Shown here in pieces: positions 1 through 16,629 of a stretch of 64,000 nucleotides of DNA (positions are counted from its first letter, which is position 1; each line of letters opens with the position of its first letter). The stretch is from positions 128,001-192,000 of IMG/VR virus record IMGVR_UViG_3300015050_001523; one strand, given 5' to 3'. Source of the stretch: a virus. Taxonomy: Duplodnaviria > Caudoviricetes. A program made the translations under genes and the position numbers. Below the pieces are notes generated by a model. It was not told where the DNA came from, did not search any database, and saw nothing but the letters and a program-made list of their open reading frames with translations.

Positions 1-1
1 C

Positions 2-175: not shown

Positions 176-531
176 TGAAAGTTCGCAAACCTAAAACCGA
201 AGCTGAAGATATGGCAATGTCTGCGCGGGCTCTGGATTTTCTTATTGAAAAAGAAAACAATTGGATTCCTATCGACGCTCCCAAGACACGAATGGATAAA
301 GTCCATTGTCAGCATATCCATATTGACAATGGCGGAATCTCAATGTCGGTTGAGGATACTGGGAAGAGCATCAATTTTGAAATATCTGCCCAATATTTTG
401 GATATCCGGCAATTTCGGCTTCTATGAACATTCAGGACCACGCAATCGAATTTGTTTCTGCGCTGAGGAAGCTAGCAGATTCCGTTGAAAAAGACATCGA
501 AAATATCAATTGGCAGGAACGATACGAATAA
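175..531 (+). CDS. Hypothetical protein (118 aa)
   Basis: ORF track; coupled to upstream stop. Confidence 0.75.
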   Translation: MKVRKPKTEAEDMAMSARALDFLIEKENNWIPIDAPKTRMDKVHCQHIHIDNGGISMSVEDTGKSINFEISAQYFGYPAISASMNIQDHAIEFVSALRKLADSVEKDIENINWQERYE

Positions 532-546
532 AGAAAAGGATGCCAT

Positions 547-614
547 TTGGCATCCTTTTTGCATGGCCAATTTTTATTAATTAATAATTTAACGATATGC
601 AAAAAAGATGCCAA
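547..614. promoter_or_regulatory. Convergent pair of sigma54-like -24/-12 boxes symmetric about TTATTAATTAATAA
   Basis: TTGGCATCCTTTTTGCA at 547-563 (+) and TTGGCATCTTTTTTGCA at 598-614 (-); each GC is 19 bp from the palindrome centre (580.5). Confidence 0.7.
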
Positions 615-641
615 GCTTGGCATCTTTCAATGTTACCAGAG

Positions 642-770
642 TCAGTCTCGCCTGGATGGCACGGCCGGCCATTGGCAGGCACACTTGGCAGTTCCACAGC
701 TCGAAGGGATCCAAATGTTCCCGCACCACGGACAGCGCGGGAAGGTCTTGGTCTTGGTCTTGGTTTCCAT
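642..770 (-). CDS. 42-aa Cys-rich microprotein (METKTKTKTFPRCPWCGNIWIPSSCGTAKCACQWPAVPSRRD), absent from ORF track
   Basis: ATG lies 6 nt downstream of TTGCGT-N16-TATGCT (804-777), the same geometry as neighbouring genes; CxxC plus CxxxxCxC. Confidence 0.7.
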   Translation of the reverse strand: METKTKTKTFPRCPWCGNIWIPSSCGTAKCACQWPAVPSRRD

Positions 771-882
771 AAACTAAGCATAACGTATTCTGGCGAGAAC
801 GCAACCCAGTTCAGTGATTTATTTTTGGCATTCTTTATGCATGCTTAAAATTTATTAATTAATTAAAAAAGAACATTAAAAG

Positions 883-905
883 AAAAGGCGCATTATGCGC
901 CTTTT
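883..905. terminator. Bidirectional intrinsic terminator (representative of about 18 similar ones in 0.9-12.6 kb)
   Basis: AAAAGGCGC-ATTAT-GCGCCTTTT; near-identical hairpins near 1957, 2360, 3541, 4457, 5779, 6303, 8731, 9063, 9555, 10074, 10696, 11064, 11605, 11978, 12545. Confidence 0.85.
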
Positions 906-907
906 GG

Positions 908-1453
908 TTATCGGGCCGTCATTTCTCCGAGCCAAAGCTTGGCATCCTTACTGTCTCGAAAGATAACAAAGCTGGCATCAATAACAAACCATCCAATATA
1001 ATTTAGATCTTTCATTCGTGGTTCTTCCTTATGGCGCAAGGCTGGCCGATCGTTATGTTGGTCTTCAACCAGCATGACTGCCATATCAAACTTTTCTTCG
1101 GGGCCAACAAACCAACCAAAGCTGCTATCTCCAACTTTGATTTCCTTAAAGGACAGAGCCTTGACAGCATGCAAAGCTCGCATTTCTCGCAAGGCGCTCG
1201 GCAAAGCTCCAAATTCAAACTCGGCCGAGCCCATATAATCGAAAGAGAAGTATTGGTCAACACCTTTACTTTGGCCTACAGAATGCTTCTTCGCACAAAT
1301 CCGCTGTACCAAATAAGTCGCCCGAGAAGGATAATTAATCTTCTCCCAATCAAGGCGCTGCTGACGCTGTGACTTTGTGGACTTTGTTTGCGAATCAGGT
1401 TGCGGCTTGGTCCAAGTGTTCGCAGAATTCATCAGTGACTTTAGGCTGGCCAT
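908..1453 (-). CDS. Hypothetical protein (181 aa), leaderless
   Basis: ORF track; TTGCAT-N16-TATCCT-N6-ATG upstream. Confidence 0.8.
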   Translation of the reverse strand: MASLKSLMNSANTWTKPQPDSQTKSTKSQRQQRLDWEKINYPSRATYLVQRICAKKHSVGQSKGVDQYFSFDYMGSAEFEFGALPSALREMRALHAVKALSFKEIKVGDSSFGWFVGPEEKFDMAVMLVEDQHNDRPALRHKEEPRMKDLNYIGWFVIDASFVIFRDSKDAKLWLGEMTAR

Positions 1454-1548
1454 GATTAAAAGGATAGCCTATCCGAATCAGGATGCAAGGCCAAAAATAA
1501 ATTTATTTTGATGTTGCGCGAGCGACCTTTATGGACCATCCTATAATC

Positions 1549-1953
1549 ATGGAAACCGAAGCCGCCGCTATCACTCTCAAGCCCGAGCCCACCAATAGCA
1601 AAGAAGAGCTTTTGCTGGCAAAGATTCCGATGCCTGACAGCGCCAATCAAAAGGAAGGCACGCGAAATGAATTGGAGATAAAGGTTCGGTATATCAAGGA
1701 TGGAATGGGAAGGCTCGGCGGCCGAGGCTTTTTCCTAACCATTCATGGATATGCGGTTGAAGGTCTATTTAAAACCTTTATGCTTTGTCAGGACCCTTCG
1801 GAGTATATCTTTGTCGAGCCCTGTCAGCGATTTGGCGCAAAGGCCATGAATCAGGCCGCTTCCCGCGCTTGCGGAGAAGAATTTCGCGCTAAGATCGAAA
1901 AAGAGGTTGTCAAGGCACAAAAGTATTATCTTGGAAAGACTTTTCCAATGTAA
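1549..1953 (+). CDS. Hypothetical protein, leaderless (start revised from 1531)
   Basis: TTGCGC-N17-CATCCT-N6-ATG. Confidence 0.75.
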   Translation: METEAAAITLKPEPTNSKEELLLAKIPMPDSANQKEGTRNELEIKVRYIKDGMGRLGGRGFFLTIHGYAVEGLFKTFMLCQDPSEYIFVEPCQRFGAKAMNQAASRACGEEFRAKIEKEVVKAQKYYLGKTFPM

Positions 1954-2111
1954 ATCAAAAGGCGCATAAAGCGCCTTTCTTTTTAAATGTTCTTTTTTAT
2001 TAATTAATAACAAGCCTTATGCATTAGCCATGCCAAGCGCCTTTGGCGCGGCATGAAATTAAAGATCGGTTTGAGGTTGCATCTTCGGAAAAATGCTTCA
2101 TGCTAAAAGAG

Positions 2112-2348
2112 ATGAAAGACAAGCCTCTTTATCCAGGAAATGTTTATGACAACCCGATTAAGGGGTATAACACCCTTTATGATGAGGTAAATATTGTGAT
2201 TAGGGAACTTGAGCGCCTTCGCAAGTTTGCTCATGATGATTCTCTCAAAAATGAACATGCACTTCACCGAGAAAATGCTTTAGGCCGAACTTGTGCCTAC
2301 GAAACTGCCAAATCATTGCTTAGTGATATCTTTGTTCGTCTTGAATGA
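2112..2348 (+). CDS. Hypothetical protein (start revised from 2043)
   Basis: TTGCAT(2077)-N16-CATGCT-N7-ATG. Confidence 0.7.
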   Translation: MKDKPLYPGNVYDNPIKGYNTLYDEVNIVIRELERLRKFAHDDSLKNEHALHRENALGRTCAYETAKSLLSDIFVRLE

Positions 2349-2529
2349 AACGATCCACTAAAAAGGCGCATAAAGCGCCTTTCTTTTAAATGTTCTTTTT
2401 TATTAATTAATAAATTAAGCCCATGCAAAAAGGATGCCAATGCGCCAAAGGCGCGGCATGAAATTAAAATCGATTTGGCCTTGCATCTTAGCTGGAATGC
2501 ATTATCATCAGAAGAGGAGCTAAAGAAAA

Positions 2530-2781
2530 ATGTCACGCACTACTCGAACGGTTCCAGGACATATGATTGATCGCGGCAGTTTGACAATTACTCCTGCCAT
2601 GCAAGATTATTTGGTGAAGGTTCAGCGAGGCCAGGCTCGGGCTGTAAGCACCGTTGTTTGCGAGCATGGCTGGCCCGAGCATATTTCCGGTTCAGACCGC
2701 AAGCGAATCAAGCGCTTTGTGGCGAAGGTTCGCCGCCGTCAGGCTCGGCAAGATATCCGAGATTCTTTTATGCTTGGCTGA
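2530..2781 (+). CDS. Small basic hypothetical protein (83 aa)
   Basis: TTGCAT(2481)-N16-TATCAT promoter; AGAGGAG SD. Confidence 0.75.
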   Translation: MSRTTRTVPGHMIDRGSLTITPAMQDYLVKVQRGQARAVSTVVCEHGWPEHISGSDRKRIKRFVAKVRRRQARQDIRDSFMLG

Positions 2782-2792
2782 GTCACCGCTAT

Positions 2793-3107
2793 ATGAATAA
2801 TCTCTCCGACCAAACCGCTTGCATCCATCCCAATCTCGCATCGCTTATTGCTGAGGAATTTACCCAATTTGGCTTTGTGCGAGTTAACCTCACAAACGGC
2901 TACGTGATCGAAATCGAACTTTACGATAGCGGTAACACCGCCGTGGTGGTCCGCGCGCCCGTAACGGAGCGATCCCCCTATGGAGGTTGCGATCTTATTT
3001 ACCAAACCAAGACTAAGCCCGCATCGGTTGCGATTGATGCGATGATGGCGCGGATCGTTGAATGGATGCGTCCGAAGACCGAGCCTGCTGACCTTGCACC
3101 ATTCTGA
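2793..3107 (+). CDS. Hypothetical protein (104 aa; start revised from 2658)
   Basis: In-frame ATG just after the upstream stop. Confidence 0.7.
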   Translation: MNNLSDQTACIHPNLASLIAEEFTQFGFVRVNLTNGYVIEIELYDSGNTAVVVRAPVTERSPYGGCDLIYQTKTKPASVAIDAMMARIVEWMRPKTEPADLAPF

Positions 3108-3220
3108 GAATCGAGGATGCCAGATTAAATCTGGCATCCTTTTTGCATTCTGGTTTAATTATTAATTAATAACTTTCTTTAAAATAAAAAGAGCGCAATA
3201 AATGCTGCGCTCTTTTTCCA

Positions 3221-3490
3221 TTAATAAAGTGTAAAGTTTTGGGCTGGACTTGGGCTTAGTCCGTTTAAAACGCATGCTCCAATTGCAGCAACCAAAGTAG
3301 AGGCATTATTCGTATTAAATTCGTATCCAACATATCGCTTTCCTTTGTGCATCCTGGTTTTATCCGAGCCTCCCCAAATGCAAAGTTTGTTCAAGTCTGT
3401 GCGAAGCTCGGGAGCCGAATCTTCACAAACAAAGATCCGATGTCCATAATAGGTTCCGCCAAGAACGACCACAAACTTTGGATTCTCCAT
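3221..3490 (-). CDS. Hypothetical protein (89 aa), leaderless
   Basis: TTGCTT-N16-TAGACT-N6-ATG. Confidence 0.75.
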   Translation of the reverse strand: MENPKFVVVLGGTYYGHRIFVCEDSAPELRTDLNKLCIWGGSDKTRMHKGKRYVGYEFNTNNASTLVAAIGACVLNGLSPSPAQNFTLY

Positions 3491-3568
3491 ATATAGAGTC
3501 TAATTCATGCTGAGCCAAAAGCAAGAAAGAAATCCTAAAAAAAAAGGCGCCTAAAGCGCCTTTCCTCG

Positions 3569-3766
3569 TTATTGAAGGTTAGCTAGAAATTTAGAGATCC
3601 TTTCACGAACCCATGGGTTTTCTGGGTCGTGCTCAATCGAGCCGCTTGCGGAGCTTTGGAAGGTGCTCGTGATTGCAAGAGGCGAGCCATAATGGCCCGT
3701 GCATCCGCGAAACATGCGAGCATCAATAACATCTGCCATGGTCATTTGAATAGAATTATTATTCAT
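3569..3766 (-). CDS. Hypothetical protein (65 aa)
   Basis: ORF track; follows 3773-4003 and precedes a terminator. Confidence 0.6.
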   Translation of the reverse strand: MNNNSIQMTMADVIDARMFRGCTGHYGSPLAITSTFQSSASGSIEHDPENPWVRERISKFLANLQ

Positions 3767-3772
3767 GATCTA

Positions 3773-4003
3773 TCATCCTTGCCAATTGCGCGGACGTGGA
3801 ACCGGCGGATCGTGCGGGTGTGGCTGGGCTTGAATAACAACCACTTCTGGCAAGAACCAGGACAAGTGTCCCGATGCCATGTTATAGCCAGCCAACCTTC
3901 CGCGCTCGTCGTAACGTGTTAGTCGCTTGTGTTTGGCACCGCTCCAAAACATATCTCCGTCTACAAGCTCGGACAGTGGAACTTTGATTGGGTCAGTCAC
4001 CAT
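3773..4003 (-). CDS. Hypothetical protein (76 aa; GTG at 4000 is an alternative start)
   Basis: TTGCAT-N16-CATTAT promoter, duplicated upstream of 4323. Confidence 0.65.
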   Translation of the reverse strand: MVTDPIKVPLSELVDGDMFWSGAKHKRLTRYDERGRLAGYNMASGHLSWFLPEVVVIQAQPHPHDPPVPRPRNWQG

Positions 4004-4137
4004 CTAATAATGCCAGAAGAAAGACAGGATGCAAGCAGACTTAATGATTTATTTTTTGCCGTGCCAAGGCACGGCTCATGCATGATGCTTGTTATTAATT
4101 AAGATTTTAATGCTAAATGCGCCAAAGGCGCTTCTTT

Positions 4138-4323
4138 TCAGTCGGACTTGCGCTTTGTGTCGGCCGCAATTTGAATCGCTCGTGCCGCAGCCGTAATTGC
4201 TGACAAGACGGCCGGCAACTGAGTAACTGCGAGAAAGCTCAGATCGCTGGCGAGCTTGCCGTATTTGCGAGCAGCATCCGCGATCTCCTTTTGAGTTTCG
4301 TTGTTGAGTATTGGATCAGCCAT
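4138..4323 (-). CDS. Small helical hypothetical protein (61 aa), leaderless
   Basis: TTGCAT-N16-CATTAT-N6-ATG. Confidence 0.7.
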   Translation of the reverse strand: MADPILNNETQKEIADAARKYGKLASDLSFLAVTQLPAVLSAITAAARAIQIAADTKRKSD

Positions 4324-4484
4324 AAGCTAATAATGCCAGAAGAAAGACAAGATGCAAGTACCTTCTGTCTATATTTATTTATTCCGCGCCTTTGGCGCTT
4401 GGCATCCTTTATGCATGAAAGTTTTTATTAATTAATTAATAACGGAACCTTAAATGAAAAAGGCGCTTTATGCGCCTTTTCAAA

Positions 4485-4937
4485 TTATTCGCACTTATTA
4501 TTGGAATCGATTGACGTCCAACAGCCAGAGTGTGGACCGACTTCGCCGATTTCCTCGTCAAGCATCAAAGCATAAACGGGAAAAAAGATAGAACCTCCAC
4601 CATGACTGTTAAAGTAAGGGAACCTCGCATCAATCGCTGTGCAGAGCGGCATGGTAATTGCACGATACAGAATCTCGGAATCAGAAGGTGCAATTTCCTT
4701 TCCATCATAATCGATAATGGAGGCAACAACCATCTTTCCAAGAGAGTCAACAATCGACTTGTAAGAATTGTCGACAATTTCGACCTTGATTCCTTCGGCG
4801 CTCAATTCCGCATGGATCTTCAAAGCCTTTTCGAAGGTATGATATTCTCCCTCAAAAACTCGCCTTCCGCTTCCATTACCAGGAACGCTAGGAACGAAAG
4901 AGAGGACAGCAAACGGAGCATTGATTGGCTGGCTCAT
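4485..4937 (-). CDS. Hypothetical protein (150 aa; start revised from 5105)
   Basis: TTGCTC-N16-TATCTT-N7-ATG. Confidence 0.7.
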   Translation of the reverse strand: MSQPINAPFAVLSFVPSVPGNGSGRRVFEGEYHTFEKALKIHAELSAEGIKVEIVDNSYKSIVDSLGKMVVASIIDYDGKEIAPSDSEILYRAITMPLCTAIDARFPYFNSHGGGSIFFPVYALMLDEEIGEVGPHSGCWTSIDSNNKCE

Positions 4938-5033
4938 CCCTAACAAGATAGCATCCTCCAATGAGCGAGCAACGATTAAAATAAATTTATTTTCGTTCTT
5001 GACTCTCTCGGATTCTCGGCCAGACTTATAATC

Positions 5034-5321
5034 ATGACCCGCCAGATCGCCATCGCTGAAGCTGCTCGGCCTTTCTATGTTGTGGAGGTTGCGCCGACCT
5101 ACCATCCTGTTACAGATGGAATTACTGGTTACCGCGAATACCGCGAAAGCGAAGCAAGCTACGAAACCTTTGGTGGCGCTAGCTGGCGCGTTGGAATGCT
5201 GGATCGGCGATATGGCGGGGATGTCTGGTATGCGATTCGTGATGCGCTTGGGCGTAGTGTTTACTTCCCGCGAGTCGAGCCCGAGCAGGCACCTTGCGAG
5301 GATGGCGATATTCCGTTCTAA
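5034..5321 (+). CDS. Hypothetical protein (95 aa)
   Basis: TTGACT(4999)-N16-CAGACT-N7-ATG. Confidence 0.75.
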   Translation: MTRQIAIAEAARPFYVVEVAPTYHPVTDGITGYREYRESEASYETFGGASWRVGMLDRRYGGDVWYAIRDALGRSVYFPRVEPEQAPCEDGDIPF

Positions 5322-5357
5322 GCTTGCATCCCATCATTTTCGAGGTATAACTCTCTC

Positions 5358-5792
5358 ATGGAAACCGCCGAGTCTTTTATTTCCAAGTTGAATCTTTCTT
5401 TTACTGAAAGCTTCCCTAACGGATTCATTTCGACTCAGATTCACCGGTCACTTTGCAAGGCTGATGCCTTTAAAATTTATGTTGTTTTTACGATTCTTCC
5501 GCTTGGAGCGCAAACAAACGGAATCGTTGAAAACGATCCGAGCCTGAACAAATTTTTCATTTACATCGGCGAAAATCTTGAATCTTTGCCGGAATCGATC
5601 CAAACTGATCTATTCCAAGGAAATAGGCTTTACAGCCCAAAGGGACCGCAAGCGGGCAGCGAAAAGCTGGGCTGGCGCAATGGCAAGGCATCGGCCGAAA
5701 AGATCCTAAAAAAGTTTGATCTTTTCTTTAAGAAGGTTCGGGCGATGGTCGATGCCAATGGTGGAATTGAGGCTTATCAAAAGAGCGCATAA
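5358..5792 (+). CDS. Hypothetical protein (144 aa)
   Basis: TTGCAT(5324)-N16-TATAAC-N6-ATG. Confidence 0.8.
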   Translation: METAESFISKLNLSFTESFPNGFISTQIHRSLCKADAFKIYVVFTILPLGAQTNGIVENDPSLNKFFIYIGENLESLPESIQTDLFQGNRLYSPKGPQAGSEKLGWRNGKASAEKILKKFDLFFKKVRAMVDANGGIEAYQKSA

Positions 5793-5935
5793 CGCGCTCT
5801 TTTTCTTTTTAAGATCATGGCTTATTAATTAACAAGAAAAGCCATGCAGGAAGCATGCCAAGCGCCAAAGGCGCTGCATAAAATAAACCGTCAAAGTCCG
5901 CTTGCATCTTGGCTTCTATGAGGTATCATTACATC

Positions 5936-6199
5936 ATGCGAAATCGAAACTTTCTTCTTCCTTTGGTGCTTTGCTTTGGCTTTCTTATTGGCTGCACCGT
6001 GCCCAGCGATCGGGCTATGCACGTGCTAAAGGGAGCCGGTTATACTGAGGTCAACCTCGGTGATCATGCGTGGTATAGCTGCGGAAAGGATGATACCCTC
6101 GCAACTGAGTTTGTGGCCAAAGGTCCAAATGGCCAGCGTGTTCAGGGTGCGGTTTGTTGCGGTGTTTGGGGCAAGAGCTGCACCGTTCGGCTTGACTAG
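5936..6199 (+). CDS. Small lipoprotein (87 aa)
   Basis: TTGCAT(5902)-N16-TATCAT-N6-ATG; basic N-terminus, hydrophobic stretch, lipobox LIGC. Confidence 0.8.
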   Translation: MRNRNFLLPLVLCFGFLIGCTVPSDRAMHVLKGAGYTEVNLGDHAWYSCGKDDTLATEFVAKGPNGQRVQGAVCCGVWGKSCTVRLD

Positions 6200-6203
6200 A
6201 TTT

Positions 6204-6299
6204 ATGACGACCGCGATCGGTATGCCTCTAACAATTCTAGTATGCTTATTCTCTGGAATAGCCGTTTCGCTGCTCCTAAACAAGAAACGAAGGAGCTAA
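6204..6299 (+). CDS. Possible 31-aa single-TM peptide
   Basis: MTTAIGMPLTILVCLFSGIAVSLLLNKKRRS; hydrophobic core and basic tail; lies between a gene and a terminator. Confidence 0.4.
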   Translation: MTTAIGMPLTILVCLFSGIAVSLLLNKKRRS

Positions 6300-6459
6300 A
6301 CCTAAAGGCGCATTACGCGCCTTTTCTTCTTTGCCAAAAACATTTATTAATTAATAAAAATTCTTCATGCACAAGGCATGCCAAGGCGCCAAAGGCGCGG
6401 CATGAAATTAAAGATCGATTTGAGGTTGCATCTTGATTTGGATAGGTTATCCTTGGAGT

Positions 6460-6705
6460 ATGGGAAAGACGCAACGAAACCGGAAGCAGCAGTCCAAGGG
6501 CCAAGAAATGACCCGAGCCGCCGCCCGAGCATACATGGTTCGAAACCTCAAGGATTACACCGATCGAATCAGCGGCGATGTCAATCTGACCCGCCTCGCC
6601 GAGTCATGTTGTCAAGCTTTCAATTGTAACCATGATGGTGGTCCCCTCGATCAAGAGGATCATTGGATTTGGGATGTTACCGCGGATTTCTCAAATATCC
6701 GGTAA
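6460..6705 (+). CDS. Hypothetical protein (start revised from 6433)
   Basis: TTGCAT(6426)-N16-TATCCT-N6-ATG. Confidence 0.75.
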   Translation: MGKTQRNRKQQSKGQEMTRAAARAYMVRNLKDYTDRISGDVNLTRLAESCCQAFNCNHDGGPLDQEDHWIWDVTADFSNIR

Positions 6706-6712
6706 AACCCAT

Positions 6713-6943
6713 ATGACCACAATCCTAATGTTTTTCGTGGGAATCGTTGTTGGCACAATGATTGGCTGGATTCTTGGCTGGAGCCTCATTGTTATTTGTA
6801 GCTATCCTTTGGAATGGCTCCGAAGGCGCAAGCGACTCAAGGAATTTGAGCGCGAGGAGCGCGAAAAAGAAAATGATTTGATCCTCAACTTGGATCCTCA
6901 ACTTCTAACCGAGCTAATTCAAGCATTCCGAAACCAAAAGTAA
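6713..6943 (+). CDS. Small membrane protein
   Basis: N-terminal TM helix (MTTILMFFVGIVVGTMIGWILGWSLIVI) then charged tail. Confidence 0.7.
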   Translation: MTTILMFFVGIVVGTMIGWILGWSLIVICSYPLEWLRRRKRLKEFEREEREKENDLILNLDPQLLTELIQAFRNQK

Positions 6944-9712: not shown

Positions 9713-10057
9713 ATGCTTCTCACTTTCGAAGAAAAGCTCATCGGGATTTCTCTCATGCAAGCGGGATGCTCGGCTTCCTCGGCTTCCGTTCAAATGAATG
9801 CATATTCAGGAGGCCAGTACACACTGGAAAAGATGCGCGATCTTTTCAAGTCCTTGGAAGAGGCCAAGAAAACTCACAAGGCGATTGGCGGCGTATTGAT
9901 CGAACTTCAAAACCCAGAAGCCACGGTAGAAGATCGCGTGTTTTTTCTGTATTCCATGGACAATCGAAGCGTGCAAGTAACAAAAGCGTTTCTGAACACC
10001 TGCTTGCCAGAATGGGCGATCCAGCTCGAAAAGATCATGGATTCGTGGGATTTCTAA
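9713..10057 (+). CDS. Hypothetical protein (start revised from 9698)
   Basis: TTGCAT(9675)-N16-TATGCT overlaps the track start codon. Confidence 0.7.
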   Translation: MLLTFEEKLIGISLMQAGCSASSASVQMNAYSGGQYTLEKMRDLFKSLEEAKKTHKAIGGVLIELQNPEATVEDRVFFLYSMDNRSVQVTKAFLNTCLPEWAIQLEKIMDSWDF

Positions 10058-10234
10058 CAAGTCACACGTTCAAAAAGGGCGCACAAAGCGCCCTTTTTCT
10101 TTTTTAAGTTCCTGAGTTTATTAATTAATAAAGCTTATTATTCATGAATCGTGCCAAAGCGCCAAAGGCGCATGATAAAATAAATCGTCAAAGATGGCTT
10201 GCGCCCCTCGCCAATCCAAGCTAAGGTTAATCCG

Positions 10235-10678
10235 ATGGCAAATTTCAAAACCCTCCTCGCTGCTTCCCTCGTTCGCAATTCGCGCAAGGAACAGGCCCAG
10301 GAATGGCAGCAATCCATCGCGCTTGCCGCGCAAAGCGAAGATAACTTCGAGCGCGAGGTTGAAGTCCGAACCCGTGCGATTTGTGAGCATGATTTCTGCG
10401 CGAGTTTCACCAGCCTCGTGGAAAGCGAGGTTCACAGCGCGCTTCTCGCGCAGGTCAAGGAACTTTCGATTTGCGCGGCATGCGCAGAGTATGAAAGTCG
10501 GCATTGTTCGGATTGTCGCGGATATGGCTTCACTTCATGGGAGAATCGTTCGACTCGGGCCATGCTTGCCGATCCGCATACTGTGAACAAAATCGATGAA
10601 TCCATCCGAGCCGAGCTTGAAAGCCGCTTGGGAAAAGGAGCTTGGGAGGATATGATGGAATGCATGAATGATGCATAA
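10235..10678 (+). CDS. Hypothetical protein with CxxC pairs (start revised from 10199)
   Basis: TTGCGC-N17-TAAGGT-N7-ATG; CAAC and CSDC motifs. Confidence 0.75.
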   Translation: MANFKTLLAASLVRNSRKEQAQEWQQSIALAAQSEDNFEREVEVRTRAICEHDFCASFTSLVESEVHSALLAQVKELSICAACAEYESRHCSDCRGYGFTSWENRSTRAMLADPHTVNKIDESIRAELESRLGKGAWEDMMECMNDA

Positions 10679-10851
10679 CAAATCAAACATTCCCAAGGGC
10701 GCATAAGGCGCCCTTTTTCTTTTTAGACTTCCAATTTATTAATTAATAAATTTGAATATGCATGAAGGATGCCAAGGCGCCAAAGGCGCGGCATAAATAA
10801 AAAATAAATCGTTGCTTGACTTCGGCCGAGACTCGATTAGAATGATCTTCG

Positions 10852-11043
10852 ATGGAAACCGTCCGCTTCACCTTCACCGCTACCGCCATCGGCTCGACTC
10901 ACGAGATCACGATTGTCGTTCCGATTGAAGATGATCCAGAGCTTGCTTACTCGGAACTTGCGGACAACGCGCAAGAGCAAGCTGAGCAGATCGCGCGCGA
11001 GCGACTCGGAGTCGAGGATGTCGAGGTTCTGCTGCGCAGCTAG
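10852..11043 (+). CDS. Small acidic hypothetical protein (63 aa)
   Basis: TTGACT(10816)-N16-TAGAAT-N8-ATG. Confidence 0.75.
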   Translation: METVRFTFTATAIGSTHEITIVVPIEDDPELAYSELADNAQEQAEQIARERLGVEDVEVLLRS

Positions 11044-11222
11044 CGCCGCTCTCTTCGGATCCTTAAGGGCGCTTGAAGCGCCCTTTTCTTTTTAAGTTTC
11101 CTGAGCTATTAATTAATAAAGTTTACTATGCATAAAGGATGCCAAAGCGCCAAAGGCGCGGCATAAAATAAATCGACCGAGGTTGCTTGCATCTTCTCAA
11201 TCATGATTTATAGTTCCTTTGC

Positions 11223-11579
11223 ATGGCGACCCAAATGGTTCCGACCCTCTCGATCTTCTCTATGCCTGAGAACGTCTATTGGCAGGCGAACGAATTGCGC
11301 AATTCGGACAATCCGCATCGATACTCTGCGTGCAATTATTTCACGCATGGTAGCGTATACTTCCAAAAAGGCCATTGGCTGAGCGAAGACATGTGGATCG
11401 TCGAAATCGATGGCGAGGAGATCGCTACCTTTAAGCTTCGATTCTTGACCGAGGCGGTTGCTTTTATGTCGGTCCAAGTCGACAAGGATGGTGATCGTGA
11501 TGCGATGGTGAATGCTATGCAAAGCACGCAAAGTGACTATGAGGAGGATTGGGATTATGAAGAGGAGTTTCGTGAATAA
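11223..11579 (+). CDS. Hypothetical protein with acidic tail (118 aa)
   Basis: TTGCAT(11187)-N16-TATAGT-N8-ATG. Confidence 0.75.
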   Translation: MATQMVPTLSIFSMPENVYWQANELRNSDNPHRYSACNYFTHGSVYFQKGHWLSEDMWIVEIDGEEIATFKLRFLTEAVAFMSVQVDKDGDRDAMVNAMQSTQSDYEEDWDYEEEFRE

Positions 11580-12024
11580 ACAGGATAAAATCAAACATTC
11601 CTTAAGGGCGCTTTGTGCGCCCTTTTTGCTTTAAGTTTCCTAAATTATTAATTAATAACCCCTAGCCATACACCTTCTATGCCAACGTCTTTATTTTGTT
11701 GCACATTATTCGCAGCATAAGCTGGCTTCCTAGAAGCTTCCAGAAGGCGGCGAGGACTCGGCCGGTACCCTCGCCGCCCGACAGGCCGAAAACGGCTCAG
11801 CAAGGCGCATAACAATGTTTCCTTTGATGCTAGCATCTGGCCGGCGCTGCCCAAAAACGGAGGAGAAGATCGAACCCTAGCCTCCACCCCCCTCCAAAAA
11901 ATGGCCCAAATCTTGCTTAAATTCTGGGCGTTAATTAATTAAAATTCTCTATGCAAAAAATGGACCAAAGTTAAATAAAAAAGGGCGCTTTATGCGCCCT
12001 AACAAAATGAAAGCTTTGGGAGGA

Positions 12025-12408
12025 TTAAATGAAATAATCGCTTTCGTACCAAAGATCATGGTCAAAGGTATCAAAACCCATAACCTCGTTGAAGGCGTGA
12101 GCGCCTCCTATCATTCCTGCATGAACTGCCATTTCATCCAAGCATGCACGCTCGAATTGCGCAGCTTCATGCGCCTTTTGCGCATTCATTTGCGCAATTT
12201 CTGCGTCAGTTTTGACGCGGCGAGAAACTCCCAAATCTGGGATCTCAAGCCAAGCTGTCCAAACCAACATTTTATTTAGAGGTTTTGAATCGTGAGGATT
12301 GTGAAAAAACTCCAAAGCCTCAGCTTCCGTTTCGAACGAAACGCTAGAATGACAATCATCGTTACCATTGGCAGGATTGGAACCCCAGAAAAAAACTTCG
12401 ATAGCCAT
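12025..12408 (-). CDS. Hypothetical protein (127 aa)
   Basis: ORF track; TTGCCT...TATAAA upstream. Confidence 0.75.
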   Translation of the reverse strand: MAIEVFFWGSNPANGNDDCHSSVSFETEAEALEFFHNPHDSKPLNKMLVWTAWLEIPDLGVSRRVKTDAEIAQMNAQKAHEAAQFERACLDEMAVHAGMIGGAHAFNEVMGFDTFDHDLWYESDYFI

Positions 12409-12620
12409 CGCACAAATTTATAGCAAAGGACATGCTCCAAGGCAAGCCAACTTAAAGATTTATTTTTTGGCATCATTTATGCATGAGCCAAATTTATTAA
12501 TTAATGAATTTCTCGATGCAAAAAATAGGCCGAAACATTAAAATAAAAAGGGCGCATAAAGCGCCCTTCAAAAGCTATTAATAAAAAATGGCGCGGATCT
12601 TGCAACCCGCGCCATTGGCG

Positions 12621-13586
12621 CTAACCGAGCACCGCTTCGATTTTCTCGACCGCGAACTTCACGCGATCGTTACCCTTCGCGTCGAAATGATTGCGCTCGT
12701 CGGACAAAACCCACAAAACATAATCAACCATCGATTTGTTAGCATGGATCTTCGAGGGATGCGGGATTCGCGCGATGTCGGCGCGAAGGTCGCGCATCAA
12801 CCGATTGAGCCGATCAAACGCGGTCTCGGCGCGCTCGGGATCCGGCGCAGCCTGGCCATCATGCGCACGGAGCGCTTCATCGGTCACGTTGAGGATCTCG
12901 CGGTAAATGCGCCCAAGCATGCCGGGGTTGTTGCAGTGGCGGTGATCGCGCCCTTCGGTCCAAGTGCCAAGGCGCCCAACGCGCTTCACAGTGTGACCCT
13001 TGCGCTGGTCGCGCGTCTTCGAGCTGACGCCGGGAGCGCAGATCCGAATCTGATCCGAGCCGAGCGGCCGAACGGCGCCGCCAACGCGCTTGCCGTTGGC
13101 GCTCTTGCCGCCAACAATCGAAGTGAAGACCGAGACCACGATCGGCATGCCGCGCGAGTCGCGCCCAACCTCACGAACCCAGATCTCCTCACCGGGAGTC
13201 AGCGGAGATCCCGCGGTCTCGCTGGCGAACGCGAACCCCGCAATGAGCAGAACATCGCGGATCGCGCCAGCGAGCATTTCGCGCGATTGCGTGCTATGCG
13301 GATCGTACTTGGTTTCCGCGGTGTACGCGGTATGCGGGGTTTGCGCCCACGTCTGCGACTCTCGCGCAGCATCGGCCGCGGCTTGCGCAGCCGCACGCAA
13401 ATCTTGCTCCGGGTTCTCAGCGCGCAGTTCCCGCGAAGCTTGCGCGAGGAGCGCATCGTAATCCAGACCATGCTCGGCGCAGATCTTGCACGCGTTAAGT
13501 CGCGCGTTAAGCGCTTCGGTCGAGCTAGTCGCGGGATGCGCAACGATCTTAAGGAGCTTTACCACTTTGGAGGAGAAGTTCGACAT
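12621..13586 (-). CDS. Hypothetical protein with DUF2786-like N-terminus (321 aa)
   Basis: KVVKLLKIVAHPATSSTEALNARLNACKICAEHGLD resembles the DUF2786 helical motif; TTGCTT-N16-CATAAT promoter; most GC-rich gene in the window. Confidence 0.65.
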   Translation of the reverse strand: MSNFSSKVVKLLKIVAHPATSSTEALNARLNACKICAEHGLDYDALLAQASRELRAENPEQDLRAAAQAAADAARESQTWAQTPHTAYTAETKYDPHSTQSREMLAGAIRDVLLIAGFAFASETAGSPLTPGEEIWVREVGRDSRGMPIVVSVFTSIVGGKSANGKRVGGAVRPLGSDQIRICAPGVSSKTRDQRKGHTVKRVGRLGTWTEGRDHRHCNNPGMLGRIYREILNVTDEALRAHDGQAAPDPERAETAFDRLNRLMRDLRADIARIPHPSKIHANKSMVDYVLWVLSDERNHFDAKGNDRVKFAVEKIEAVLG

Positions 13587-13899
13587 GGTAGCTTTGTCGC
13601 TTTCGGCACCGGTCAGCGGCGCATCGGGAAAAAATCAGGATCGATTTGATTATGGTCCGAGATCAAGATTAAGCAAGCGATACGCAAAGAAAAAAATCCA
13701 CCTAATTAAATCAATCACTTACACTTGGCACCAATCTTGCCGATCAGAATTCCTAACATAAGCGATTTTTTAACTTTCTTTTAACTAATATTCCTATGGA
13801 TCGAATCTTGCAAAGGATCTTCCTTGGATCAGATCTTGCATAAAAAGCACGTTATTAATTAATAGCTCAGGCATATGCATAAAAGATGCCAGCGCAAGG

Positions 13900-16610
13900 T
13901 TTGCGCTCCAAAGCAAGCCAAAATCATTGAACATTTAAGGCATAGGGCTGGGACGTCGTATAAGGCTCATGGCGAGGCGATCGCCAAAACAAGGGAGAGG
14001 TTAGGGGTCACCCTTAAAAACCCGTCTCCGTCAATCCTCGCGCGTCGAGCCTAGAACCGCTGCTAGTCGCCGATCCAAGCCCGAAACCGCCAAAATCCCT
14101 TAAATCCGCAAGCCGCGCACAAGAAAAGATAAGGAAAGGTGAGCAAACCTCATGAAATGTAATTAAAGGTAAAGAGATGGAATCAATCATAAACAAACCT
14201 CCCACCATGTAAGTAAAGGTCATGACGTCTGGGATAATGTCATGACATATAAGTGAATTGGATCAAAGATAATAAAATATAACCAAACATAATGAAAGGT
14301 AGGCAAACATCGGGAAAGGTAATAAGAGGTAGCCTAAGATAATCCAAGGAAATGAAAGGTAGGCAAATGTCATGAGACTTGGGGAAACCTAAGAGAAGTA
14401 AACACGCGCCGCATAACCTATACAAAAAACTTATATTGAAGGGAAATAAAATCAAATATCCCTCATGTATGACACCATCCCAGCTTGTAAACCGTTGCAG
14501 CATTTACTGTAACAGCATTCATTGATTCAATAAACACTGAAACATCTTAACCGTCTCACTCGCAACCGTTACAGTAAACGCTGTCACAGTGTTCGCTGAA
14601 ACACTAATCAATGTCTCAATAAAAATGTTTCAGTAAACAATGACATAATAACATAACTAACCCTTATCCCATCCTTGCCTACATATAAGCTTTCCTCATG
14701 ACATTTCCTTACCCCTTTTTGTGAACTAGCTTACATATCGTTTCATGCGTTGCAACATCACTTGAAACACTCCGCGCATGATTCGCAAACATCGTTCCAG
14801 CATGGCTAAACATCATGCTAGACCCCCATATCCCTCAGGTTTGGCGTGAAACATGGGGGCAATGGTCCTATCGCCCCCCATCCTATCGCCTCGCAGAATC
14901 CATCCTGGCGCGCGACAGCCTATGAAGGTTTCTTGCCTACATATAAACTTTCCATAAACTAACTCTCCCATAATAAATCTAACCTTCCTATAACCAACTA
15001 TTTCCTAACTCTATACAAATTATATGCCATCAAATTCCTAACTTTCCTTAACCCTTTCATAATTCCTTCTATATCTTCCGTTCCTTCCTCTCCTATTACC
15101 ATTTAAAGCTAATAATAATCAGATAACCCATTTCCCTTATGGATCAATGGCCCAATTACCATTTCAAACATTCCTGCCATATCTAATATGTTTGTTTTGC
15201 TATATTTGGCCAAATAACTGCTTAAACTATTATAAATAGTAAAGCTTACTTTACTATCTCCTTAGTTTTTCAAAATATTGAATATTAATTATATCATTAT
15301 TTTTTGAATTGTTGGGATTGTCTAAAACGATAGCTATGTTCGATTAGGGAGCTTTTTGACATATTAGCCGCTATAAATAACGATCAGTTTCTTGCATATT
15401 TCATGCCAGTTAAAAGGCTACCATTCCTCAAAAACCTATTATGCCGAATCATTCATATTTAATGATCCTAACTCCACGAATTCAAACATTTCGCATTAAT
15501 TAATAACCCCTTATTTCATTATTTCCAGAATATCAAAGAAAGCTAGCAAAACAAAAGGATGGAAAAAGCTAACAAAAGCGATATTTCCAAGAAAGCTAAA
15601 ATGCCGAATCATTCATATTTAATGATCCTAGCTATTCGAATTCGAAGTTTTGATAGTTATGTTTGGATTGGTAGAAATATAAGGAAAGTTAGAAATGGGA
15701 GTTATTAATTAAGAAGGTAAAGGCATGCACAAGGCATGCCAACCACAAAAGTTAGGAATGATAGATTAGGAAGGAAAGTTAGGAAGGAAAGTTAGGAATG
15801 AGAGAAAGAGGAGGAGAACCCAGCCAAATCAAACCTCCTATTCCTACCTAACCTTATATCTCTTATGCTAGATATATGGGATATGTCTGGGTTGATAGGT
15901 TATGCTCGCCCATCCTTAATTAACAATCCTTCTCTATGCAATCCCTATGCCATGTCTCCATGTTCGATATGTTAGCTTTGTTCCAAAAGCTCTTAATTAA
16001 CAAATCCGATTCATGCAACCCTTATGCCAATAGCTTTGATACTAATGTTAGGAATGGGAGCCTTATATCCCTTCAGCTTTGTTAGGTTATGCTTTGGCAT
16101 GAAGTATGCAAGATGTTAGGTTTGGTAGGCTAACATTGTTCTAAATTTAGTTATAGGAATGGATGCTATGTTGGGATTGTTAGGATTGATAGGTAAATTT
16201 TAAATAGCTTTGGCAGCTTTGATGCTTTCGCGCCAAGGCCGCCATGTTCGGTTTGTTATTAATGTTTGATATGGGAGGATTGGGTATATTAGTTTTCTTC
16301 GATATGTTAGCTTCGCCGGGTTTGCGCTCGGGCCGCATAGCTCCTATTCCTCCCGGTAGGATACCCGCCTACATCACCCCCCTTTAGACCCCCCCTGTTT
16401 ACCCCCCCTTACACCCCCCTACCATGCGTCACTAATCGCCCCCTTATGGACCTGCTCTAAGAGCCCTCGCAAAAATTTTCTAAATTTTTAACATTTTTAA
16501 ATGATTACATTTTTCCGAAAATGTAATCAAAAAATATTTGATATATGGGTCGAAAAAATTTTTGGGGAAAATTTTTGAAAATTAGGAATTTATAGATGTT
16601 TATGTTTATG
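13900..16610. other. About 2.7-kb non-coding, repeat-rich region (candidate genome terminus or origin)
   Basis: No credible ORF; CCTAAC and GTTAGG repeats in opposite arms; 30-bp direct repeat at 15441 and 15601; sigma54-like boxes at about 15392, 15725, 15937, 16014, 16094. Confidence 0.55.
16377..16419 (-). other. G-quadruplex-forming motif
   Basis: Minus strand G6-TGTAA-G7-TAAACA-G7-TCTAAA-G6. Confidence 0.7.
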
Positions 16611-16629
16611 TTTTATATTTATAGTTTAT

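Follow-up and report, generated by a model that had tools for sequence, protein, structure and literature searches.

The window analyzed here is a 64-kb stretch of the 322,518-bp genome of an uncultured jumbo phage, called T4-type because that genome encodes a gp23 match (199.6 bits) and an rIIA-like protein; coordinates are positions in the window unless marked as genome positions. Its left part holds an array in which about 22 to 25 copies of a ~150-base module punctuate ~25 unrelated small genes (Table 1). The sequence-only reading had placed the array at 530-13900, with about 30 ORFs. Module units and many unrelated small genes do lie there, but by our own promoter-anchored calls this interval contains ~24 protein genes and one tRNA-like RNA, and the array passes it on both sides, from about -7000, that is, ~7 kb left of the window, to about 16100, the orphan units extending to 16.1 kb. 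The array is confined to a GC-rich island (GC of 44-49%, with 0.44-0.52 in window 1-14 kb versus ~0.32 elsewhere), in line with the earlier remark that this zone is richer in GC than 16.6-64 kb. The orphan units sit inside a 2.6-kb noncoding stretch adjoining the island, which carries helically phased short repeats and could be an origin. The contig is a metagenome assembly in which, in principle, cassettes could have been placed in the wrong order owing to repeats of ~54 identical bases.

The ORFs are mutually unrelated, as had been claimed: in an all-versus-all BLASTP comparison, only spurious frames crossing modules matched. Pfam scans covered ~30 island ORFs, with those in 175-4323 compared with PHROGs only; nearly all array ORFs were without a Pfam or PHROG family, and no integrase or transposase family was matched among the island ORFs scanned. 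Payload GC is heterogeneous (43-66% across measured homologue pairs), which fits separate acquisitions. The host-takeover or anti-defense role suggested for these genes is not supported, nearly all of them being familyless, and they are candidates only.

Table 1. Features of the array in window coordinates; (+) and (-) give the strand of a part
Position	Strand	Feature	Details
175-531	+	118-aa ORFan gene	No Pfam/PHROG family; hairpin 534-559 after stop
534-626		Tail-to-tail junction	Hairpin 534-559 overlapping box 548-563(+), palindrome 574-587, box 598-613(-) with hairpin 605-626
642-770	-	Cys-rich 42-aa gene	Leaderless type, TTGCGT-16-TATGCT-6-ATG
777-905	-	Module of gene 642-770	Promoter, A-tract, box 826-841, palindrome 852-866, terminator 883-905 (ends gene 908-1453)
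908-1453	-	181-aa gene	Leaderless type, TATCCT-7-ATG; 78-81% identical homologues in two metagenome contigs; distant DUF488-like matches
1454-1548		Head-to-head junction	No palindrome or box; divergent promoters share palindromic A/T tract 1494-1509; same layout in L119
1549-1953	+	134-aa gene	L119 homologue, 61% aa
1957-2111	+	Full module	Terminator 1958-1978, palindrome 1997-2010, box 2020-2035(-), hairpin 2037-2049, A-tract, -35 2077-2082
2112-2348	+	78-aa gene, cassette payload	Missing from L119
2361-2529	+	Full module	Terminator 2362-2382, palindrome 2400-2413, box 2424-2439(-), hairpin 2442-2454, -35 2481-2486, -10 2503-2508, GAGGAG leader
2530-3107	+	Two genes without intervening module	2530-2781 (83 aa; L119 homologue, 67%), 2793-3107 (104 aa)
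3113-3218		Tail-to-tail junction	Terminator 3113-3141 containing box 3132-3147(+), palindrome 3159-3172, terminator of minus-strand gene
3221-4003	-	Three ORFan genes	3221-3490 (89 aa), 3569-3766 (65 aa), 3773-4003 (76 aa); terminator 3543-3563 within block
4004-4131	-	Module of gene 3773-4003	Promoter, A/T tract, hairpin with AGGCAC-N5-ATGCAT box 4067-4082, palindrome 4092-4102, hairpin 4119-4131
4138-4323	-	61-aa ORFan gene	
4327-4480	-	Full module, reversed	Promoter, hairpin 4386-4398, box 4400-4415(+), palindrome 4425-4442, terminator 4458-4480
4485-4937	-	150-aa gene	Leaderless type, TATCTT-7-ATG
5034-5391		Uncertain ORF, 95-104 aa	Directly before gene 5358-5792
5358-5792	+	144-aa ORFan gene	
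5779-5935	+	Full module	Terminator 5779-5803, palindrome-like 5822-5835, box 5845-5860(-), hairpin 5862-5874, -35 5902-5907
5936-6199	+	87-aa gene	Leaderless type; phrog_902 (unknown function); L121 homologue inverted and displaced
6304-6459	+	Full module	Terminator 6304-6324, palindrome 6344-6357, box 6368-6383(-), hairpin 6386-6398, -35 6426-6431
6460-6705	+	81-aa gene	Leaderless type; homologues in L121 and L132
6632-6943	+	Possible 103-aa ORF	After gene 6460-6705
6956-7058		Junction	Bidirectional terminator 6956-6983, palindrome 6999-7016, degenerate box 7023-7038 inside hairpin 7030-7059
7059-7160	-	tRNA-shaped RNA gene as payload	33-nt insert in anticodon region
8140-8315		Head-to-head junction	Single shared palindrome 8227-8240; minus-strand side, box 8202-8217(+); plus-strand side, hairpin, A-tract, TTGCAT-16-TATCCT-6-ATG
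8316-8711	+	131-aa gene	Leaderless type; Pfam DUF7695
8730-8896	+	Full module	Palindrome 8762-8775, box 8785-8800(-), hairpin 8803-8815, -35 8841-8846, 28-nt leader
8897-9043	+	48-aa gene	Hydrophobic N-terminus then Cys; lipoprotein-like by eye
9065-9221	+	Full module	Terminator 9065-9087, palindrome 9107-9120, box 9130-9145(-), hairpin 9147-9159
9222-9536	+	104-aa gene	Leaderless type
9554-9712	+	Full module	Terminator 9554-9574, palindrome 9594-9607, box 9618-9633(-), hairpin 9636-9648, -35 9675-9680
9713-10057	+	114-aa ORFan gene	
10072-10234	+	Module with degenerate box	Terminator 10072-10098, palindrome 10118-10131, hairpin 10159-10171
10235-10678	+	147-aa gene	Leaderless type
10695-10851	+	Full module	Terminator 10695-10715, palindrome 10736-10749, box 10759-10774(-), hairpin 10777-10789
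10852-11043	+	63-aa gene	58% GC; L121 homologue at different place
11065-11222	+	Full module	Terminator 11065-11085, palindrome 11106-11119, box 11129-11144(-), hairpin 11147-11159, -35 11187-11192
11223-11579	+	118-aa gene	Leaderless type
11604-12000		Region without convincing ORF in its GC-rich middle (11690-11900)	Left, terminator 11604-11624, palindrome 11645-11658, degenerate box; right, palindrome 11931-11944, degenerate box, terminator 11982-12000(-)
12025-12408	-	127-aa gene	Leaderless type, TATAAA-8-ATG
12415-12569	-	Module without GCGCC hairpin	Promoter, A-tract, box 12468-12483(+), palindrome 12494-12507; far end, degenerate second box, terminator 12547-12569(-)
12621-13586	-	321-aa gene, ~62% GC	Called from protein-like composition on minus strand only and terminator placement; overlying 353-aa plus-strand ORF rejected as antisense shadow
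13836-13907		Last unit inside 530-13900	Palindrome 13852-13865, box 13876-13891(-), hairpin 13891-13907
15393-16110		Orphan palindrome and box units, geneless	Boxes at 15393, 15726, 15937, 16014, 16095

The repeated module and its promoters

In order, the module consists of a terminator hairpin, the palindrome TTATTAATTAATAA, a sigma54-type box (TGGCAT-N5-WTGCAT), a GCGCC-N3-GGCGC hairpin, an A-rich tract, a TTGCAT -35 and a TAnnnT -10. Every motif is far above chance, which confirms the repeated ordered module of the earlier description. Within the 64-kb window, TGGCA-N7-TGCA occurs 24 times (0.79 expected), TATTAATTAATA 13 times (0.07 expected) and GCGCC-N3-GGCGC, previously put at ~10 copies, also 13 times (0.01 expected); terminator-like hairpins number 43 in window 1-16700, versus 22 expected. 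When the whole 322,518-bp genome was searched, genome positions 121-144 kb held 15/15 copies of TATTAATTAATA, 15/15 of GCGCC-N3-GGCGC and 27 of the 31 boxes. A generic TTGACA/TATAAT promoter scan showed no enrichment (26 versus 26.7 expected) because the -35 of the array is TTGCAT.

Three spacer pairs singled out earlier as near-exact copies hold on reading the sequence: 1957-2010 and 2360-2413 are a single 1-nt indel apart, 2035-2086 and 6384-6435 are identical save for 1-2 bases and a hairpin loop that is flipped (TTT/AAA), and 4004-4035 and 4327-4357 match at 31/32 positions. Modules are also mosaic. For example, the left part of the module at 1957 is nearest to that at 2361 (85%), its right part to that at 6304 (76%), and its box part to a module left of the window.

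The gene promoters are of the sigma70 type (TTGCAT, 16-17 nt, TAnnnT, with the A-rich tract upstream), and the start codon mostly lies 6-8 nt past the -10, so that most array genes should yield leaderless mRNAs. TTGC-type promoters lie 5-9 nt before 12 island ATGs (4.5% of candidate ATGs versus 0.5% elsewhere), and the leaderless layout is retained in homologous cassettes of two relatives, L119 and L121. Promoter and terminator activity and start sites are predictions from sequence, and early expression of the array is suggested only by the sigma70-like promoters with A-tracts.

Rearrangement at module borders in related phages

In L119, the homologue of 1549-1953 is joined directly to the promoter of the 2530-2781 homologue; thus, 524 nt (window 1954-2477; module, gene and module) are present only in the phage studied here. 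The borders of this block are the stop codon and a point just before the -35, and only the portion of module 2361-2529 from the -35 onward is found in L119. In L121, eight homologues (43-69% aa) are scrambled in order and orientation, and 14 palindrome variants, mostly TTATTTATTAATAA, occur in the same part order. The more distant L131, L132 and L134 carry ~40 small genes per locus around an AAA+/HTH pair, almost none with a homologue here. Each relative has more boxes than chance predicts (2-7 versus 0.02-0.12 expected), and five distinct phages share, upstream of the AAA+ gene, a palindrome-like tract, box, A-tract, -35 and -10 whose register is conserved. The available relatives are 45-80% identical in protein, and no very close pair of genomes, the kind behind the PeSL case, was found. 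Block gain or loss at exact module borders, the scrambled homologues and near-complete turnover of the flanking small genes all support the recombination shuffling proposed from sequence; gene order in relatives, named there as the check, is not conserved and so does not refute it.

Ordinary gene punctuation, in which spacer similarity reflects shared terminator and promoter constraints with no role in rearrangement, is already disfavored and, in our judgment, very improbable. The hairpin, T-run, A-tract, -35 and -10 are indeed standard signals, and homology between relatives (45-55% protein identity) stops inside coding sequences. However, the identical or near-identical stretches of 32-54 nt include positions without known signal function, the 14-nt perfect palindrome and the two-part box are conserved with a variable spacer, nearest neighbors are discordant along one module, and a module-gene-module block is missing from L119.

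An integrated foreign mobile element (a satellite, plasmid-like element or higher-GC phage piece) or a chimeric assembly would account for an island whose GC lies 13-17 points above the rest of the genome, for the TTGCAT promoter type that is rare elsewhere in the genome and for the adjacent noncoding stretch with its phased repeats, a possible origin; the relatives' loci are likewise 39-46% GC throughout. Nevertheless, we regard such an origin as improbable. Phage DNA of 32% GC flanks both sides within one contig, GC changes gene by gene, not as a single block, and no integrase or transposase family was matched among the island ORFs scanned. In addition, the island AAA+ gene of L121, L134, L136 and L137 adjoins homologues of genes that lie outside the island here (genome 60, 93, 96, 106.6, 107 and 112 kb), which indicates that the region belongs to this phage lineage.

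The array is probably a hyperplastic, that is, fast-changing accessory, region of a T4-type jumbo phage, built from PeSL-like regulatory cassettes. The payload would usually be one small orphan gene, sometimes an RNA gene, forming a self-contained transcription unit: A-rich tract, sigma70-type promoter, start 6-8 nt past the -10, ORF and intrinsic terminator. Units would be separated by an insulator of ~120 nt, running from the terminator hairpin through an AT palindrome of 14 nt and a sigma54-type box to the A-tract; the box points inward and in many copies contributes to a second hairpin. With ~25 partly identical copies within 23 kb, homologous recombination by the phage could delete, insert, invert and exchange units, leaving neighboring units undisturbed. 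Recombination as the mechanism is what we infer from these rearrangements. The L119 junction has no module at all, so that simple recombination of two flanking modules, with one left behind, is insufficient alone; the insulator may spread on its own.

Box, palindrome and likeness to PeSL cassettes

The box (logo TTGGCAT-N5-WTGCAT) always lies between palindrome and gene, on the opposite strand and directed away from the gene, which does not support the earlier assignment of the sigma54-like box to the gene's own promoter. Our leading guess is that it may be a site where the host's sigma54 holoenzyme binds, serving as a roadblock or a divergent mini-promoter. A working sigma54-dependent promoter firing away from the gene, or a closed complex that insulates or blocks read-through, is possible but tentative, and would supplement the cassette reading without displacing it. 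The product of such a promoter would be a ~55-nt RNA (palindrome, A-rich stretch and hairpin), or an antisense RNA where the hairpin lacks Ts. GG and GC keep the exact sigma54 spacing in 24/24 window boxes despite spacer variation, and the predicted +1 is the first or second palindrome base in nearly all copies, yet no gene lies downstream in the box's direction. A hairpin with a T-run follows 35-56 nt beyond the +1 in 9 of the 26 copies scanned, and in a few more by eye; on the other hand, TGGCA is the 3' arm of a hairpin in 17/28 copies, and 8 resemble plain terminators, so that box conservation could be partly structural, and the WTGCAT half is the gene-promoter -35 hexamer, 17 nt from the palindrome TAATAA. 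Relatives contain the canonical TGGCACG-N4-TTGCAT, the box is kept at the orthologous site upstream of the AAA+ gene in five phages, and the same pattern search found seemingly real sigma54 promoters before glnB/K-like genes in L123 and L125. Salmonella commonly has sigma54 sites within genes or in antisense orientation, a subset of them active (PMC3844500). In the phage studied here, however, neither an RpoN DNA-binding domain nor a specific enhancer-binding ATPase was found.

At tail-to-tail and head-to-head junctions, two boxes ~50 nt apart face one another, a layout that would be unusual among promoters but is what a symmetric operator would naturally have. The palindrome and flanking boxes could then be bound by a phage protein that switches all cassettes jointly, for instance in a shut-off after the early phase, or could mark borders for a dedicated recombination protein; the candidate binders are the conserved island-encoded HTH protein and HTH-AAA+ ATPase. 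We consider this doubtful. Symmetric box-palindrome-box arrangements occur at 534-626 and also between the genes for the AAA+ and HTH proteins, and no other part of the region than this gene pair is retained in all relatives. The distance from box to -35 varies from about 22 to 50 nt, which speaks against an operator. The palindrome consensus is lineage specific (TTATTAATTAATAA here, TTATTTATTAATAA in L121, TTAGTAATTAA in L132 and TTGTTAGTTAA in L134), as expected from coevolution with a binding protein, but gene conversion among copies predicts this equally. A helper protein was also proposed by the PeSL authors (PMC2839356). The link of either protein to the site is a proposal only; the AAA+ protein is modeled as a generic AAA+ fold (MoxR/NorQ, RFC, RuvB; TM about 0.44) and gave no match in PDB sequence searches.

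The analogy with PeSLs drawn in the sequence-only reading fits a T4-type genome with terminator-plus-promoter composites in an ORFan-rich region. Like the PeSLs of T4-type phages, for which a mini-circle model exists (PMC2839356, PMC4122927), the cassettes combine a terminator and a promoter and are probably shuffled. A classic PeSL has one stem-loop and a Shine-Dalgarno site, whereas the module here has a second hairpin as well as a palindrome and a sigma54-type box, and a Shine-Dalgarno site is missing from most of the genes; part of the module is thus without a PeSL counterpart. The array is an elaborate version of the known PeSL cassettes, with two features not described for PeSLs.

A GC-rich island and its repeated module

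By its sequence, the phage is a T4-type jumbo phage: its gp23 capsid gene (genome 287 kb) matches Pfam Gp23 at 199.6 bits, and a 767-aa rIIA-like protein matches the rIIA of many T4-like phages. The genome, a single 322,518-bp viral contig that is 93% complete by CheckV and is classed as linear in IMG/VR, without recorded end repeats, also carries 25 tRNA genes and genes for Ro60, PARP, Sir2, and RNA ligase. Genome-wide GC content is ∼32%, compared with 44 to 49% (5-kb bins) in an island at genome 121 to 144 kb, a difference of 13 to 17 points. In window numbering, where negative values lie to the left of the window, the island extends from about -7000 to 16100. Because the GC-rich stretch starts ∼7 kb left of the window, the region pointed out in the sequence-only reading is the larger part of the island.

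A repeated, ordered module had been proposed to lie between the small ORFs, and this is borne out by motif counts far above expectation and by 15 modules that can be aligned (gene calls are our own). The pattern TGGCA-N7-TGCA, representing the sigma54-type box, occurs in 24 copies in the window against 0.79 expected, with identical spacing in all; GCGCC-N3-GGCGC and TATTAATTAATA each occur in 13 copies (0.01 and 0.07 expected, respectively). Hairpins followed by a T-run, resembling terminators, number 43 against 22 expected from shuffled sequence, an approximately twofold excess. Across the genome, the box, the AT palindrome, and GCGCC-N3-GGCGC are essentially confined to the island. Aligned over ∼150 nt, the modules yield a consensus whose first half consists of an A-run, a GGCGC-N4-GCGCC hairpin, a T-run to TTTAAG, ∼9 nt, and TTATTAATTAATAA; there follow ∼9 nt, ATGCAT-N5-ATGCCAA, GCGCC-AAA-GGCGC, GGCATAAAATAAATCG, ∼10 nt, TTGCAT (-35), 16 to 17 nt, and TAnnnT (-10). 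All promoters, terminators, and start sites named here are sequence predictions. A generic sigma70 scan showed no enrichment, and Rfam at a permissive threshold found only terminator look-alikes within the modules.

The composition of a junction varies with the orientation of the genes that it separates. The full module is present at tail-to-head junctions. At tail-to-tail junctions (534-626 and 3113-3218), one palindrome lies between two inward terminators, and the box doubles as the 3′ arm and T-run of a terminator. Where genes stand head to head, a single palindrome is shared at 8140-8315 and left of the window, between the genes for an HTH-AAA+ ATPase and a small HTH protein (the AAA+/HTH pair); the head-to-head junction at 1454-1548 has none. 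The palindrome was considered as a T4 late promoter, and this was rejected: TATAAATA is found at 60 sites in the rest of the genome and at none in the island.

Sequence comparison confirmed the three pairs of near-exact spacer copies that had been noted earlier. Furthermore, some modules are mosaics: along the length of the module starting at 1957, the nearest match is three different modules in turn, and in the right part, it departs from the module at 6304 chiefly by having its hairpin loop flipped. Both observations are consistent with exchange between copies of the module. Most copies of GCGCC-N3-GGCGC have an AAA loop, and a few otherwise near-identical ones (2037-2049, 8803-8815, and 4386-4398) have TTT, a swap that suggests inversion of the hairpin in place.

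The contig is a metagenome assembly in which 54-nt repeats could put cassettes in the wrong order. Two DNA runs, both freshwater metagenomes, have words in common with the island; their contigs over it are only 150 to 400 nt long, at low depth, and provide no joints. Two single-contig hints from these runs, too weak to serve as evidence, are 9 nt of a hairpin missing at 2441 and a loss of likeness left of 5883, within a module.

Predicted leaderless starts and cassette contents

In most genes of the island, the start codon lies 6 to 8 nt past the -10 hexamer, with no room for a leader; evident leaders precede only three genes (2530, 8897, and 13586). Twelve island ATGs are found 5 to 9 nt after TTGCNN-16..18-TAnnnT, which is 4.5% of the candidate ATGs, compared with 0.5% in the rest of the genome. 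Transcription usually starts ∼7 nt after the -10 element; if this holds here, the mRNAs would begin at AUG. About six more genes have the leaderless layout (CTTGC..-16-GCTATC.T-6/7-ATG) at genome 104 to 120 kb (window -24000 to -7700), indicating that this promoter type reaches further than the palindrome modules. A mostly leaderless design would allow expression without a fit to the host ribosome-binding site, plausibly an advantage for genes that move between phages.

The small ORFs are unrelated to one another, as had been claimed. Family scans covered ∼30 ORFs against Pfam and 20 against PHROGs (those in 175-4323 against PHROGs only), and the matches among ∼40 ORFs were limited to DUF7695, phrog_902, generic AAA, and HTH_7. 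PDB sequence searches and two Atlas look-ups were uninformative on protein function. Host-interaction functions may reasonably be sought among the ∼25 orphan genes, and the hyperplastic regions of T4 offer an analogy that makes early timing and host-takeover or anti-defense roles plausible. Among the homologue pairs measured, GC content ranges from 43 to 66%, and individual values are alike between the homologues of the two phages; this gene-by-gene pattern fits separate acquisitions.

One cassette carries an RNA rather than a protein gene, and the AAA+/HTH pair, encoded left of the window, is the only pair of genes from the region that every recovered relative has retained (see the table). 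In the RNA, the acceptor, D, and T arms are normal, and a 33-nt insert replaces the normal anticodon loop. A fold search with the model of the AAA+ protein (pLDDT 90) returned the generic AAA+ fold.

Selected features of the island, with window coordinates, coordinates in L001 (a locus that includes DNA left of the window), strand, and basis
Feature	Window	L001	Strand	Basis
tRNA-shaped RNA, cassette payload	7059-7160		-	Rfam tRNA, 56 bits; missed by ARAGORN
HTH-AAA+ ATPase, 358 aa	-2978 to -1902	13022-14098	-	sequence and model
HTH_7 protein, 207 aa, 66% GC	-1531 to -908	14469-15092	+	sequence

Several other stretches deserve mention. A 42-aa Cys-rich ORF at 642-770 (minus strand), with a CPWC...C..C pattern and its own leaderless-type promoter, possibly encodes a tiny zinc-ribbon protein. 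A 353-aa plus-strand ORF at 12588-13649 was rejected as a gene because it merely shadows a 321-aa gene encoded antisense to it on the minus strand. At 7403-7662, 3.3 tandem copies of a 78-nt unit (96 to 98% identical, with a partial copy at 7770-7791) each contain a small GCTTG-N6-CAAGC hairpin and no convincing ORF. Likewise, a GC-rich segment between two palindromes (11690-11900) has no convincing ORF; 85 nt of it (11773-11857) match a freshwater metagenome contig at ∼94%, with different flanks, and the segment is possibly a small RNA or a mobile fragment. Finally, the 2.6 kb at 14000-16600 contain no credible genes. This stretch harbors short A-rich repeats of the AAAGGTAGGCAAA type spaced by multiples of 10 nt (14120-14390, with inverted copies at 14660-15050), GTTAGGAA repeats (15660-15800), four C-runs (16380-16420), and orphan palindrome-plus-box units, and may serve as an origin or as a further array of protein-binding sites.

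Relatives, the sigma54-type box, and the AT palindrome

Near-identity DNA searches of the phage collection recovered no relatives. In IMG/VR, the exact palindrome-plus-box pattern had 0 matches, a looser pattern had single chance matches only, among the matches listed, and locus searches seeded with three island proteins found none. Several relatives, all moderately distant and none a close pair, were recovered by protein searches and by one metagenome pattern scan. Among the six loci returned by the scan, the sole relative is one sequence present in two samples (L120 and L121); at L123 and L125, the pattern apparently marks sigma54 promoters of bacterial glnB/K-like genes, and the matches at L122 and L124 were discarded as due to chance.

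The proposal that cassettes are shuffled by recombination is supported by a block difference at module borders in one relative, by scrambled gene order and orientation in another, and by the mosaic modules. The first relative, the 1.3-kb locus L119, encodes proteins 61 to 78% identical to those of the island, including homologues of 908-1453 and 1549-1953, whose divergent leaderless promoters are the same as here. Its homologue of 2530-2781 begins ∼50 nt past the preceding stop codon, with only its own -35 and -10 before the start. This short spacing, also found in the contig of a second relative, implies that 524 nt at 1954-2477 (a module, a 78-aa gene, and a module) are present here and absent in L119; the borders of the difference are the stop codon and a point just upstream of the -35. 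The compared junction in L119 is without any module, so the 120-nt insulator may spread independently of the promoter or may have been lost there. The L121 locus (46% GC) contains eight homologues (43 to 69% aa identity) of island and left-flank genes in changed order and orientation, together with 14 copies in 12 kb of the same module, which has its own palindrome consensus, TTATTTATTAATAA.

The loci L131 and L132 (from contigs of 356 and 351 kb), L134, L136, and L137 have in common with the island only the AAA+/HTH pair, divergent or tandem, and an occasional small gene; around these, each locus has ∼40 small genes without a homologue in this phage. Every relative has more boxes than chance predicts (2 to 7 copies against at most 0.12 expected). 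Often the box takes the canonical form TGGCACG-N4-TTGCAT, with an AT-rich, palindrome-like TTAnTAATTAA ∼11 nt farther on and, in some cases, a terminator directly behind. Ahead of the orthologous AAA+ gene, five distinct phages have the palindrome-like tract, box, A-tract, -35, and -10 in the same register. The GCGCC-N3-GGCGC hairpin is found in this phage only. An N4-type hairpin promoter was rejected as an explanation of this 5-bp/3-nt hairpin, given that the relatives lack it and that there is no giant virion polymerase context. A role of the palindrome as a six-frame stop barrier was also dismissed, with the stops lost in the relatives' variants.

Two parts of the module call for an explanation: the box, which points away from the gene, and the palindrome at the predicted start of the box. 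The box always lies between palindrome and gene and faces away from the gene, with the palindrome ahead of it. A start predicted 12 nt from the GC falls on palindrome base 1 or 2 in nearly all 26 copies. A hairpin with a T-run lies 35 to 56 nt past this start in 9 of the 26 copies by scan, and in a few more by eye, with no ORF there; a short RNA transcribed from the box is possible. Of 28 copies here, 17 have TGGCA as the 3′ arm of a stable hairpin, and 8 resemble plain terminators; in relatives, TGGCA lies in such an arm in only about half of the copies. Nevertheless, the box is not a mere terminator remnant: in most copies the spacer is not T-rich, and TGGCA and TGCA are kept whether or not a hairpin exists.

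We regard the box as a candidate sigma54 site. It has GG at -24 and TGC at -12, at a spacing that remains exact while the spacer sequence varies, and the canonical form in relatives, the fixed geometry of the predicted start, and the retention of the element at an orthologous promoter all point the same way; moreover, antisense sigma54 sites are known in bacteria (PMC3844500). Speaking against this assignment, or leaving it undecided, the phage has neither RpoN (no Sigma54_DBD in its genome) nor a specific activator; a PF00158 search of the phage gave weak generic AAA matches only, and the model of the island AAA+ protein is not specifically like an enhancer-binding protein. In addition, nothing is encoded downstream of the box, boxes face each other in pairs at symmetric junctions, and the palindrome consensus differs by lineage. 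An operator for a phage protein would suit the last two points just as well. Alternatively, WTGCAT could serve as a -35 and TAATAA in the palindrome as a -10, a reading for which the relatives' printed sequences speak weakly.

It is conceivable, albeit rather unlikely, that in a clade of freshwater T4-like jumbo phages, a sigma54-holoenzyme site stands back-to-back with each accessory-gene promoter, aimed at the AT palindrome and terminator, so that the sigma54 polymerase, whether bound there or firing briefly, would give leaderless plug-in cassettes either a portable insulator or a supply of short divergent RNA. If true, this would be a use of sigma54 undescribed for any phage.

As a separate observation, an unrelated phage contig in IMG/VR (L077, 34% GC) has sigma54-type boxes at 6632-6700 and 8055-8120 (TGGCACGAAAATTGCA and TGGCATGGAAATTGCA), each followed by a common leader, ATTAATTAACCAAGTTGGTTAAAAA, and a gene in the same direction; these look like sigma54-dependent genes in another phage.

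Comparison with sigma54 promoters, SPO1, and PeSL cassettes

Sigma54 (RpoN) promoters, including antisense and intragenic sites, have been described in Salmonella, E. coli, and Vibrio (PMC3844500). The box resembles them in its GG and TGC elements, which lie one helical turn from each other around a variable spacer, in its near-consensus TGGCA(C/T)-N5-TTGCA, and, as with many chromosomal sites, in a direction opposed to the neighboring gene. Unlike known sigma54 promoters, it is known as a sequence pattern, with no activator, enhancer site, or downstream gene identified here; ∼25 copies are packed within 23 kb of a phage, and each has an AT palindrome at its predicted start, in most cases with a terminator after it.

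The host-takeover module of the Bacillus phage SPO1 lies in the terminal redundancy, is transcribed first by host RNA polymerase, and packs together small early-type genes that are each driven by a strong promoter of host type. The island is likewise a dense run of small genes with their own predicted promoters. However, it lies inside the contig, which has no recorded terminal repeat, and there is no homology to the SPO1 module.

To our knowledge, promoter-early stem-loops (PeSLs), known from a handful of cultured phages, are the only documented means for T4-type phages to exchange accessory genes in a form ready for expression. PeSL and PmSL cassettes have been described in RB49/phi1, T4/PST, and KVP40/nt-1, where mini-circles, which arise by recombination of neighboring elements, were demonstrated along with promoter and terminator activities and early timing (Arbiol et al. 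2010, PMC2839356; Comeau et al. 2014, PMC4122927). The cassettes of the island are predicted from sequence. At that level, the analogy drawn in the sequence-only reading holds. As with PeSLs, a T4-type genome carries many copies of a composite unit (a stem-loop terminator, an AT-rich tract, and a sigma70-like promoter, here all predicted) by the start of a small gene; the units cluster in a hyperplastic region where small ORFans abound; their consensus is lineage specific; and insertions, deletions, and replacements between relatives, here moderately distant ones, fall at the elements. The differences are equally clear. The module is about twice as long as a PeSL, with five ordered parts, of which the perfect 14-nt AT palindrome, the sigma54-type -24/-12 box directed off the gene, and the second hairpin (GCGCC-N3-GGCGC) have no PeSL counterpart. 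The -35 is TTGCAT; most genes lack the Shine-Dalgarno sequence that, with the start codon, marks the 3′ end of a PeSL; and the region stands 13 to 17 GC points above the genome.

The feature itself is real and well supported. Given the likeness to PeSLs, the mosaic modules, and the gene-wise GC content, the island is read as a PeSL-type shuffling region, in which insulated, mostly leaderless, single-gene transcription units would be shuffled by exchange among module copies. The logic of PeSLs would thereby extend to a lineage of uncultured jumbo phages. The module there is richer and is kept across diverged relatives, and its new elements are a conserved sigma54-type box and palindrome and a leaderless design.
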